Assembly: GCA_964473825.1 (NCBI GenBank) | Contig: CAYYQL010000002.1 | Location: 205,288-269,287 of the forward strand | Direction: 5' to 3' | Length of the DNA: 64,000 bases | Source: an uncultured archaeon | Lineage (GTDB): Archaea > Asgardarchaeota > Thorarchaeia > Thorarchaeales > Thorarchaeaceae | Part shown: piece by piece, positions 4,595-63,533 of the stretch | Numbering within the stretch: the first letter of the stretch is position 1 | How the letters are laid out: every line of letters begins with the position of its first letter | The notes under the pieces: model-generated | What the model was told of the DNA's origin: nothing | Database searches by the model: none | The model's input: the letters and a program-made list of their open reading frames with translations, nothing else | Made by a program: the position numbers and the translations under genes

Positions 4595-6565
4595 GTGAAT
4601 ACAAGTATGGGAAACCTAAGAATCCTTACCATATCGATGATCTTGATTGTAGTCGGGATGATATATTCGTCGCCCATGGAAGAGGCAGATGGGGGCATCC
4701 AAGTTGCCTATCGGGGAGAGTACACGAATCTAACAGCGCAACTGCTACAGAACGGTACATACGGCGACCCGGTGATAGGGGAGCCAATCGAATTCTATGA
4801 GGAAACAACAGACACTTTGTTGGGAATCAGTCTGACAGATTTCCAAGGCTACGCAACTCTTGAATGGCACGTTCCATTGAATCACACATTAGGGACAACA
4901 CTTGTAAACGCAACATACCGAGGTAATGAAACCATCTTTCTTGCTCCCTCCTGTCAATGGTTAGAAGTCACTATCTATATGCGCACTAAGTTGAAAGCCA
5001 GCGTATCTGATACGCATCTAGCACCAGGTGACCTACTGTTCATCTCTGCAGAGTTACGAAATCAACAAAACGAAACATTAGGAAACGAAATACTGGAGTT
5101 ACGTTATGGAAACAACACAATGGCCACGACTTACACCAATTCCTCTGGTCTGGCTAGATTCCTAATTCATGTTAACAATTCTTGGGCGTATCTTGGCGAG
5201 AACACACTCACAATCAATCATCCCCAGAATCCTGATACCTATACCTCACAATCCTGGGATCTCATAACAGTTACTGTCAATAAAGTGACATCTTGGATAG
5301 ATTGTACCCATAATCACCTAGAAACGCTATCTCTTGGGGATTCCTTGAATCTTCACATTAGACTCAATTCCACAGAAGGACATCTGATTCACAAGAATCT
5401 ACGATTTTACTTGAATGGGGGTCTCTATACCAGTCTGCAAACAAACTCAACAGGTAACGCCGAACTACTCCTAATAATGGATGAATCATTCACCATTGGA
5501 CCCCAACACTTGGAGGTACGTTTCGAGGGCACTGACAGATATACCTCATGCCAAGAAGTCATCAGCTTCGATATACTCACATCAGTACTTGTTTCAGTAC
5601 AACAGCCCAATTTGCCAATTATTGCGATGAATACTACCTTGAAGATCCACGCGCATGACCTTTTCAGACGGCCGATTTCCAATGTTGTTGTCCAATTCTA
5701 TGACAGAACAAGTAATTTGCAAATATCTATGAATTATGAGCCGCCATTTATCACCATCGAGTTTCCTGTTCTTCCACCCAAAGGTCCTCACGATATCCAC
5801 ATTAACTTCGCAGGAAATCCATACCTTTCCAATGGGTCCTTGAATTATACCATCTATTGCTGGTCTTGTCCTGACTTCAGTAGGTTAAACTATAGCATAG
5901 AGGGCTATGCTTTTCCTGGTCAGGAAATTATAGTGGAAGCTCAACTACGGGATTTTAACAGTTCTCTCTCTCGGCACCCCGTAGATTTGCTAGTAGATGG
6001 AGTGCACACACTAACCACAAGAACAGACAGTGGTGGGGATTTCAAAGCCAGTCTTGCGGTTCCATTGCATCAAGGCGCCCACAATATGACTCTTATCTCC
6101 CATAGGATGGAGCCAAACTACATAGCAGAATCATTGGTTTCATACAGCTTCATAGTCACAAACAGAATCCCTGTAAGGGTTGTTCTGATTGAGCAGCATA
6201 TCATCCCCCCTCTGAAGAGCATTGACGTTACATTAGAAGCCAAGGCGCTCAACGGCAGTTACCCCAATGGTCTGATTATTCAATATAGATGGTTAGATAT
6301 CGTCCAGACGAGCCAGTCCGACCACTGGGGAATATTCCAATTACAGCTGCCGCTGCCTAGCCTCCCCGGGCTATATCATCTGACAATAGGCCTTCTACCG
6401 ACATCCTATACTAGAGCTCTTAATGACTCGATTCTGATTAGTATTTCTGAAGACCAAATCCTTGCTGCCCAAGGAGTCGGAATTCCTATCTTAACTCTTA
6501 GTCTAACTAGCTCGTCGGTATTGGCCATGATACCCTTTCTAAGAAGAAAATACCTTATCGGATAA
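4595..6565 (+). CDS. Secreted, C-terminally membrane-anchored Ig-like repeat surface glycoprotein
   Basis: N-terminal signal/TM; beta-rich repeats (TDFQGYATL, TNSSGLARF, TNSTGNAEL, TDSGGDFKA); many NxS/T sequons; C-terminal hydrophobic helix followed by RRK. Confidence 0.7.
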   Translation: MNTSMGNLRILTISMILIVVGMIYSSPMEEADGGIQVAYRGEYTNLTAQLLQNGTYGDPVIGEPIEFYEETTDTLLGISLTDFQGYATLEWHVPLNHTLGTTLVNATYRGNETIFLAPSCQWLEVTIYMRTKLKASVSDTHLAPGDLLFISAELRNQQNETLGNEILELRYGNNTMATTYTNSSGLARFLIHVNNSWAYLGENTLTINHPQNPDTYTSQSWDLITVTVNKVTSWIDCTHNHLETLSLGDSLNLHIRLNSTEGHLIHKNLRFYLNGGLYTSLQTNSTGNAELLLIMDESFTIGPQHLEVRFEGTDRYTSCQEVISFDILTSVLVSVQQPNLPIIAMNTTLKIHAHDLFRRPISNVVVQFYDRTSNLQISMNYEPPFITIEFPVLPPKGPHDIHINFAGNPYLSNGSLNYTIYCWSCPDFSRLNYSIEGYAFPGQEIIVEAQLRDFNSSLSRHPVDLLVDGVHTLTTRTDSGGDFKASLAVPLHQGAHNMTLISHRMEPNYIAESLVSYSFIVTNRIPVRVVLIEQHIIPPLKSIDVTLEAKALNGSYPNGLIIQYRWLDIVQTSQSDHWGIFQLQLPLPSLPGLYHLTIGLLPTSYTRALNDSILISISEDQILAAQGVGIPILTLSLTSSSVLAMIPFLRRKYLIG

Positions 6566-6569
6566 GAAT

Positions 6570-6678
6570 TGGTGCTCCGGCCGGGATTCGAACCCGGGTC
6601 GAGGGATCGAGAGTCCCTCATGCTGGGCCGGACTACACTCGGTTGATTCATGCACATTCATGAAACATCTACCGGAGC
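6570..6678 (-). tRNA. tRNA-Glu(CUC) with a 31-nt BHB intron at position 10/11 (intron 6638..6668); CCA encoded
   Basis: Spliced GCTCCGGTAG|TGTAGTCCGGCCCAGCATGAGGGACTCTCGATCCCTCGACCCGGGTTCGAATCCCGGCCGGAGCACCA folds as a full cloverleaf; central helix CGGT/ACCG with bulges AGA and AGT. Confidence 0.9.
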
Positions 6679-6753
6679 TTTGGCAAGCCAGTTCGGAGCG
6701 ATGTTTCACCACATAGTATCCAAAATAAGGCTTTCCGTCCGAAAACAATCGGA

Positions 6754-6957
6754 TTACGGAAGAAGGTCTGTAAGTCCACTCCAACTGTCTTCCAATAGAT
6801 GAAGTAATCCATTCACGACTTCTTGTGCCCACCCAGTGGCCTGCAATATCACCGCAATCACAATGGAAACAGTGACAACGGCGATACCAAGAAGCAGACT
6901 CTCTTCTACAAGAGGCCCGCCATTCTCATCAGAGAGCAATTTTCCCTTATCGCACAC
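6754..6957 (-). CDS. Flp/Tad-like small pilin (class III signal peptide)
   Basis: LLSDENG|GPLVEESLLLGIAVVTVSIVIAVI: DExG cleavage site, Glu at +5, long hydrophobic helix; 67 aa; directly downstream of a pilus ATPase gene. Confidence 0.65.
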   Translation of the reverse strand: MCDKGKLLSDENGGPLVEESLLLGIAVVTVSIVIAVILQATGWAQEVVNGLLHLLEDSWSGLTDLLP

Positions 6958-14067: not shown

Positions 14068-14165
14068 GCGGCCGTGGTCTAGTTTGGTTAGGACGGAAGC
14101 TTCCCAAGCTTCCAACCCGTGACGGTCGTATGACCGCGGGACTTCAAATCCCGGCGGCCGCACCA
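14068..14165 (+). tRNA. tRNA-Gly(CCC) with a 21-nt BHB intron at 53/54 (14122..14142); CCA encoded
   Basis: Acceptor GCGGCCG/CGGCCGC; anticodon arm GAAGC-TTCCCAA-GCTTC; central helix CCCG/CGGG, bulges TGA and ACT, intron stem CGGTC/GACCG. Confidence 0.88.
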
Positions 14166-63425: not shown

Positions 63426-63533
63426 TGGTGGGCCCGCGGAGATTAGTTCCAGCAGAGGGGAGTCCTCTGCGGATTGAACTCCGGGCCTCCGCCTTATCAG
63501 AGCGGCGCAATGACCAGGCTATGCTACGGGCCC
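63426..63533 (-). tRNA. tRNA-Ile(GAU) with a 30-nt intron at 58/59 (63444..63473); CCA encoded
   Basis: GGGCCCG/CGGGCCC acceptor; CCGCT-CTGATAA-GGCGG; BHB GTTC/GAAC with bulges AAT and TAA, intron stem GCAGAGG/CCTCTGC. Confidence 0.9.

Follow-up and report, generated by a model that had tools for sequence, protein, structure and literature searches.

A tRNA-Glu(CUC) gene interrupted after its tenth base, on the minus strand of a 64,000-nt stretch of DNA (the window) from an uncultured archaeon of the Thorarchaeaceae, raises the question of how an intron in such a place could be removed. The placement of tRNA introns is thought to be limited by the formation of the splicing motif in the precursor and by the need for the exons to remain associated. 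Both limits come into play for an intron after base 10, as the splicing helix competes with the acceptor stem and the first exon is 10 nt long. The account favoured here, which we judge likely as a whole, is that the locus is the only, and functional, tRNA-Glu(CUC) gene of the genome, that its intron at 10/11 is spliced by proteins, and that a leader clamp would be an additional step in this process. The core of the account, in which a 31-nt intron of relaxed HBh' type lies between G10 and U11 and the transcript of this only, functional gene is processed by EndA, RtcB and RNase P, is put forward with high confidence. The gene is located at G000:C2:211857-211965 and has the following parts in window positions:

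6570..6678 (-), whole tRNA-Glu(CUC) gene with exon 1, intron, exon 2 and encoded CCA, from the ARAGORN call after removal of 31 nt
6669..6678 (-), exon 1, GCUCCGGUAG, tRNA nucleotides 1-10, matching the 5' end of intronless orthologues exactly
6638..6668 (-), intron at 10/11, 31 nt, from sequence, relatives and folding
6667..6659, 6658..6653 and 6652..6644 (-), following the bulge base A, the 5' arm of the intron stem, the 6-nt loop and the 3' arm of the stem
6643..6640 and 6639..6638 (-), 3' part of the intron, central-helix strand ACCG and bulge bases AG
6570..6637 (-), exon 2, 68 nt, tRNA nucleotides 11-76 with the encoded CCA, from Rfam and ARAGORN
6611..6609 (-), anticodon CUC
6671..6674 (-), acceptor nucleotides C5-U8 forming the 5' strand of the bulge-helix-bulge (BHB) central helix, paired with intron (A/G)(C/U)CG in 52 of 52 distinct sequences
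6688..6699 (-), leader motif GCUCCGAACUGG, family consensus GCUCCGG-R-CUGG, from conservation across relatives
6679..6687 (-), variable spacer of 9 nt separating the leader motif from tRNA +1
6722..6735 (-), predicted BRE/TATA (gaaag-ccTTATTTT) identified by consensus, placed 22-26 nt before the leader motif among the 52 relatives
6541..6550 (-), likely terminator, a run rich in T that follows the CCA and is judged by its composition

The precursor reads GCUCCGG-U8-A9-G10, the 31 nt of the intron, U11-G12-U13 and the remaining tRNA with its CUC anticodon and CCA. The elements described in the initial annotation, namely a CGGT/ACCG central helix, bulges AG^A and AG^T and a 9-bp stem with one mismatch, were all present on the minus strand. 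In the RNA of the window genome the central helix is CGGU/ACCG, the bulges are A9 G10 ^ A (5') and A G ^ U11 (3'), and the intron stem UGUUUCAUG/CAUGAAUCA has 9 pairs, one U-U mismatch and a 6-nt loop. Three open reading frames on the same strand are located nearby, one of 67 aa immediately upstream of the tRNA promoter (window 6754-6957) and two of 97 and 83 aa (window 6539-6832 and 6406-6657) that overlap the tRNA gene and its leader and are most likely spurious.

ARAGORN called no tRNA on the unspliced gene and, with the 31 nt taken out, a canonical tRNA-Glu(ctc) of 78 nt, which bears out the proposal that cutting the insert after the second bulge base yields a perfect tRNA-Glu. The Rfam tRNA model matched the gene over model positions 9-63 only with 33.4 bits, so that the forecast that standard finders would probably miss the gene was right for ARAGORN, and Rfam retained only a partial match. 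A tRNA-Arg(ccg) with a 1876-nt intron called in the intron mode of ARAGORN was an artefact that reused the 3' half of tRNA-Glu(CUC). Two further tRNA loci in the window showed unusual calls. A 95-nt match at 14068-14162 (+) covered the full Rfam model (37.8 bits), was passed over by default ARAGORN and is presumably another intron-bearing tRNA gene. At 63457-63533 (-) ARAGORN called a tRNA-Ile(gat) that reached 30.3 bits only in Rfam and has a 3' end without CCA and not complementary to its 5' strand; this gene could be degenerate, or interrupted near its 3' end.

A gene that standard finders reject may be a pseudogene, or its 31 nt a neutral insertion that is never removed, and the initial annotation had asked whether the genome holds another tRNA-Glu(CUC). 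No second tRNA-Glu(CUC) was found in the assembly (3.27 Mb, 49% G+C, 95.7% complete), where the only other Glu gene was a UUC gene (C2:31191-31268), and refutation of the account on the ground of a pseudogene therefore fails. The sole CUC gene would serve the commoner Glu codon, as long open frames contained 22,003 GAG and 15,763 GAA codons. Promoter, CCA end and splicing helix were all retained, and the exons were nearly invariant over 13 genera while the intron sequence turned over with compensatory pairs. A pseudogene or a never-removed insertion is very unlikely in the face of this evidence.

The comparison was based on 52 distinct intron-bearing precursors gathered by searching relatives at the DNA level and by two pattern searches; a looser contig pattern scan also matched unrelated bacteria by chance and served only for extra Thorarchaeota loci. 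Introns were 26-36 nt in length. The central-helix strand was ACCG in thirty-four precursors, GCCG in sixteen, and AUCG and GUCG in one each, and the third base of the 5' bulge was A in forty-four, U in seven and G in one. The central helix was paired in all 52 (100% of alignment cells), and its changes were one-sided and all preserved pairing, consisting of U-A to U-G in sixteen precursors and G-C to G-U in two with no others. The intron stem showed both-sided changes in each of its nine pairs. The structure as a whole was 91% paired compared to 32-57% when the 3' partners were slid by 1-3 columns, and the observed covariation score was reached by none of 500 shuffles. In a fixed register the intron stem was just 67% paired because many stems carry a bulge, and when introns were folded individually the central helix was recovered in 50 of the 52. 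The intron architecture is far beyond chance.

Taken by itself, the window genome has AG repeated on either side, so that the registers 8/9, 9/10 and 10/11 all lead to one product and are equivalent there. This equivalence is what could be said for a cut at 8/9 or 9/10, which was considered together with the retention of the insert as an extra arm of the mature tRNA. Among relatives, the first two bases of the 3' bulge were AG, AU, UA, AA, AC, UG, CC or UU and the next base was always U11, and with CC, AC, UG, AA, AU or UA only a cut at 10/11 restores A9 and G10. Intronless orthologues carry the joined sequence, reading GCUCCGG-UAG-UGUAG or GCUCCGG-UAG-UGUAGUCC at the junction. The variable last two intron bases, the constant U11 and these orthologues place the junction at 10/11, as the initial annotation had it, and a cut two bases after the 4-bp helix leads to 10/11 from both sides. 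A retained arm would part G10 from U11-U13 of the D stem, and the intronless orthologues show that the compact form is functional. Retention or a different register was accordingly given next to no credence, and removal at 10/11 is the reading followed below.

From its sequence, the intron is classed as a relaxed bulge-helix-bulge of the HBh' type. A central 4-bp helix with each strand directly 5' of a splice-site bulge was found in 52 of 52 distinct sequences. On the 5' side there was a 3-nt bulge, cut after its second base and closed by an outer helix (A9-G10-N followed by the covarying hairpin). The strict hBHBh' form was not found, as G1-C4 and G12-G15 formed at most one pair and the 3' bulge had no adjacent outer helix; a pairing of the leader with the D loop was non-adjacent and predicted in nascent transcripts only. 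Joining of the exons gave a canonical tRNA identical to the intronless orthologues at the junction. Within the local 39 nt the canonical BHB conformer had an energy of -10.6 kcal/mol compared to -10.7 for the minimum free energy structure, which also retained the central helix. The locus is not a split or permuted tRNA gene, since its exons are collinear in one 109-nt gene with one promoter.

Because the 3' splice site is without an adjacent outer helix, cleavage would depend on an EndA of broad specificity. Two tRNA-intron endonuclease genes (PF01974) were found in the genome, at L149:1474-2040 (-) and L150:1147-1812 (+). The 188-aa protein matched the Aeropyrum pernix EndA catalytic subunit (3P1Z_B) over its full length (3e-42), was ungapped through GYFGQPVGIRKPKSPEFDKP, which aligned with the crenarchaeal-type loop region, and had conserved Tyr, His and Lys positions. 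The 221-aa protein looks like the structural subunit because the His is absent at its aligned position. Kaneta et al. described Asgard EndA as (alpha-beta)2 with an L1 loop that was linked to the cleavage of relaxed motifs (PMC5829648), and the EndA of this genome is expected from homology to belong to the (alpha-beta)2 class with a crenarchaeal-type L1 loop and to be capable of cleaving relaxed motifs. Also present were RtcB, at 605 bits, and the RNA of RNase P, at 152 bits. The genome thus encodes a splicing endonuclease and an RNA ligase, with the substrate range suggested by homology and by the same study (PMC5829648).

In the pathway proposed for the intron, C5-U8 would pair with ACCG near the intron's 3' end, which would put the 5' site in a bulge of 3 nt that the intron hairpin closes and the 3' site two bases past the central helix. 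Cleavage of both sites would then fall to the (alpha-beta)2 EndA, ligation of the exons to RtcB and removal of the leader to RNase P.

All intron-bearing genes shared a 12-nt leader motif, GCUCCGG-R-CUGG, located 19-25 nt upstream of tRNA +1, and the window copy has A at position 7. Information content was 1.1-2.0 bits at the twelve positions of the motif and below 0.8 bits at most flanking positions. The motif started 22-26 nt after the TTATYT of a conserved BRE/TATA in the 52 relatives, and in the other tRNA genes of the window genome the distance from TATA to tRNA +1 was 24-30 nt. These spacings predict that transcription starts at or just before the leader motif.

An argument from an unusually long leader was dropped, as the TATA is distal in several further tRNA genes of the window genome too. 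A TATA-like box was located approximately 50-60 nt upstream of Ser-UGA (C17:50261-50345), Leu-CAG (C11:71729-71813), Leu-GAG (C50:3796-3910) and Val-GAC (C6:66827-66931), which would imply leaders of 25-30 nt for these four genes.

Bases 1-7 of the leader motif are a copy of the acceptor 5' strand and therefore can pair with the 3' strand CCGGAGC, while the leader CUGG can form pairs with the D-arm CCAG. These two pairings held in 98.6% of alignment cells. Changes at C4' and C9' of the leader were C-to-U and retained wobble pairing, and G-to-A changes at leader positions 6-7 in five sequences, including the window genome, break pairs. No both-sided changes were seen in the helix between leader and 3' strand among the 52 relatives, and this lack of double changes is ascribed to the tRNA side, which hardly varies.

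These pairings suggest a clamp, for which we regard the case as about evenly balanced. The primary transcript would begin at or just before the 12-nt element, and the leader would act as a surrogate 5' strand, initially paired to the D-loop region and later to CCGGAGC, the 3' acceptor strand, and to CCAG. The real nucleotides 5-8 would thereby stay available to the splicing helix, and the 10-nt exon 1 would be tethered to exon 2 after cleavage. It is possible, though we think it rather less than probable, that the intron is spliced and the motif is no clamp but an initiator or promoter-proximal element, a site of protein binding or the selectively maintained relic of a partial duplication. Splicing would in that case proceed through transient opening of acceptor pairs 5-7, with pairs 1-4 holding the exons together. 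The leader helix without compensatory double changes is compatible with such an element, as is the position of the motif at the predicted start site, where promoter constraints at the DNA level are plausible. A copy of the gene's own acceptor strand at seven of seven bases is unexpected for a promoter element, and the wobble-preserving changes at C4' and C9' also speak for RNA pairing.

The motif followed the intron across the family. Mismatches to the consensus in intron-bearing genes numbered zero in forty-one, one in seven, two in three and three in one (0-1 in 48 of 52), and in intronless genes two in three, three in three, four in two and seven in two, on a scale where random 45-mers mostly had 4-6 mismatches. 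Intronless CUC genes keep a TATA and a leader of similar length, and it is the motif and not the promoter that decays after intron loss. This decay in each intronless lineage with the promoter kept weighs against a promoter element, whereas the recognisable relic of the motif at the same position in the intronless genus g4 weighs for one. A leader-type copy of the acceptor was found in no other tRNA gene of the window genome. The window genome has a weak look-alike at tRNA-Glu(UUC), but the possibility that this gene shares the leader motif was rejected, as the UUC genes of the family are without the motif. The absence of the motif from other tRNA genes and from family Glu(UUC) genes is difficult to explain by a promoter function, and intronless CUC genes keep the same TATA. 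The family Glu(UUC) genes have a different promoter (TTAATAAC) and short leaders. In three family relatives (L162, L167 and L169) the 76 nt from the 5' end of tRNA-Glu(UUC) do not finish in the acceptor 3' strand; these genes seem to be interrupted in their 3' part by inserted sequence, which may be another intron.

The clamp was modelled by partition function calculations with ViennaRNA on the 52 precursors. Without the leader, the probability of the real acceptor stem was 0.90 and that of the central helix 0.10, with two of 52 precursors above 0.5 for the central helix. With the natural leader the probabilities were 0.97 for the leader on the 3' strand, 0.003 for the real acceptor stem and 0.70 for the central helix, which exceeded 0.5 in 38 of 52 precursors. 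When the 7-nt copy was complemented the central helix had a probability of 0.36, and with shuffled leaders 0.38, so the leader effect is partly unspecific. The shuffled value and the two leaderless precursors above 0.5 are points in favour of a motif that is not an RNA clamp. Results were the same for transcription starts 0-5 nt upstream of the motif and faded for starts at least 2 nt inside it. In simulated nascent transcripts the central helix reached 0.77 once the D arm was made, with the leader then on AGUCCGG and AGC of the D region. The RNAalifold consensus also paired the leader with the 3' strand, and in intronless genes the degenerate leader was predicted to pair weakly with the 3' strand in most.

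The initial annotation had proposed that splicing requires refolding of the acceptor stem. Its observation that the central helix uses acceptor nucleotides was correct, with C5-U8 paired with ACCG in the window genome. A required refolding is probably not the full story, because the conserved leader copy is predicted on the 3' strand and nucleotides 5-8 would then be free from the start. Secondary-structure energies do not account for how the true acceptor stem would form ahead of RNase P cleavage. In the spliced RNA with the leader attached the decoy was still favoured in the two-dimensional model (0.90 vs 0.01), and a conformational switch after splicing was not predicted by that energy model. 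Several CCGG palindromes in the tRNA lead to many alternative pairings. Two other roles for the leader were discarded. To serve a strict BHB as its adjacent outer helix, it would have to pair with AGUCCGG, which had a probability of approximately 0 in full-length precursors, and the leader is 14-16 nt from C5. To be the true exon 1, followed by a second intron at 7/8, it would need a central helix of CUCC with CUCC, which by sequence reasoning cannot pair.

The intron pattern was found in 65 of 86 genomes and 13 of 16 genera of the window's family, Thorarchaeaceae, and in none of 315 genomes of other Asgard families. A reversed control pattern had no match in the genomes scanned. Intronless CUC genes were found in genus g4 (all seven genomes), g11, g16 and part of g7. 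In an RpoB tree the family was monophyletic (100/100) with an intronless f2 genome as its sister; g11 was placed beside the intron-bearing g5, and g4 and g7 within a clade holding eight intron-bearing genera, in a tree of low resolution within the family and with g16 absent from the sampling. The distribution fits one gain at the base of the family followed by at least three losses, a history far more economical than repeated gains of the same intron in the same place. The wider proposal that the surrogate leader, with its D-stem-like extension, originated together with the intron at the root of the Thorarchaeaceae and decays upon intron loss, permits a BHB intron in a zone whose splicing helix has to draw on acceptor nucleotides, and is an RNA-chaperoning leader dedicated to tRNA splicing, is one that in our estimation could fall either way. 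To our knowledge, such a leader is undescribed for any tRNA intron. In one genome of genus g6 (G360), tRNA-Glu(CUC) was present three times, each copy with a different intron (C49:4490-4539, C189:8624-8672 and C236:7453-7500), which could be true paralogues or the result of a mixed bin.

No published report of a tRNA intron at 10/11 was found in the literature covered, and an earlier listing in the older intron catalogues is possible. Non-canonical BHB tRNA introns, including one at acceptor-stem position 3/4, are well known for the Thermoproteales Pyrobaculum and Thermofilum (Sugahara 2008, as cited in PMC4090602; PMC3218864), and positions 20/21, 22/23, 25/26, 29/30, 30/31, 45/46, 53/54, 56/57, 59/60 and 3/4 are quoted in the review literature (PMC4090602). 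The Thermoproteales introns are similar in that a short protein-spliced intron has a relaxed BHB built partly from exon nucleotides of a cloverleaf stem and is paired with an (alpha-beta)2 EndA with a crenarchaeal-type loop. They differ in that the present phylum is Asgard, 10/11 is not among the positions quoted in the review, and no leader copy of the acceptor is described there.

Within Asgard archaea, the main texts of two studies report heavily interrupted tRNA genes in Atabeyarchaeia, Freyarchaeia and Jordiarchaeia (PMC11291895; bioRxiv 10.64898/2026.10.13.758758), and according to the latter main text tRNAscan-SE fails to detect introns of the D arm in other families of the phylum (bioRxiv 10.64898/2026.10.13.758758). 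As far as these main texts go, those lineages resemble the present case as Asgard archaea with many non-canonical introns, with D-arm introns that a standard annotator misses systematically and with gains and losses that can be traced on the species tree, whereas the Thorarchaeota intron is a single one kept through the whole history of one family. The two main texts make no mention of Thorarchaeota introns, of position 10/11 or of leader elements (PMC11291895; bioRxiv 10.64898/2026.10.13.758758). The red alga Cyanidioschyzon merolae also has BHB-type introns within the D stem of nuclear tRNAs, with splicing demonstrated by RT-PCR (PMC3728597), but it is a eukaryote with another endonuclease and no leader mimic is reported there.

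Split and permuted tRNA genes are known from Nanoarchaeum equitans, Caldivirga and Thermofilum pendens (PMC3218864; PMC4033280). In those genes outside sequence pairs with parts of the tRNA, builds the BHB and holds the pieces for ligation, and a clamp would work likewise. Their flanks pair mutually, across two transcripts or between the ends of one transcript, whereas the Thorarchaeota leader would be a mimic of the tRNA's own 5' strand in the same transcript, in a gene that is neither split nor permuted. By analogy, the complementary flanks of split and permuted genes may be taken as the nearest functional counterpart of the clamp. The intron itself is of the known BHB kind, and the leader copy linked to the intron is the new feature.

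Throughout the family, ARAGORN overlooks the tRNA gene that serves the commonest Glu codon and Rfam matches it in part only, and the tRNA sets of the family would for that reason look incomplete. If the clamp is true, the precursor with and without its leader, the two EndA subunits and RtcB would offer a simple in vitro system for the order of folding, splicing and RNase P cleavage in Asgard archaea. The gene-specific leader would then be a flanking sequence that co-evolves with the intron and makes a difficult intron position viable.
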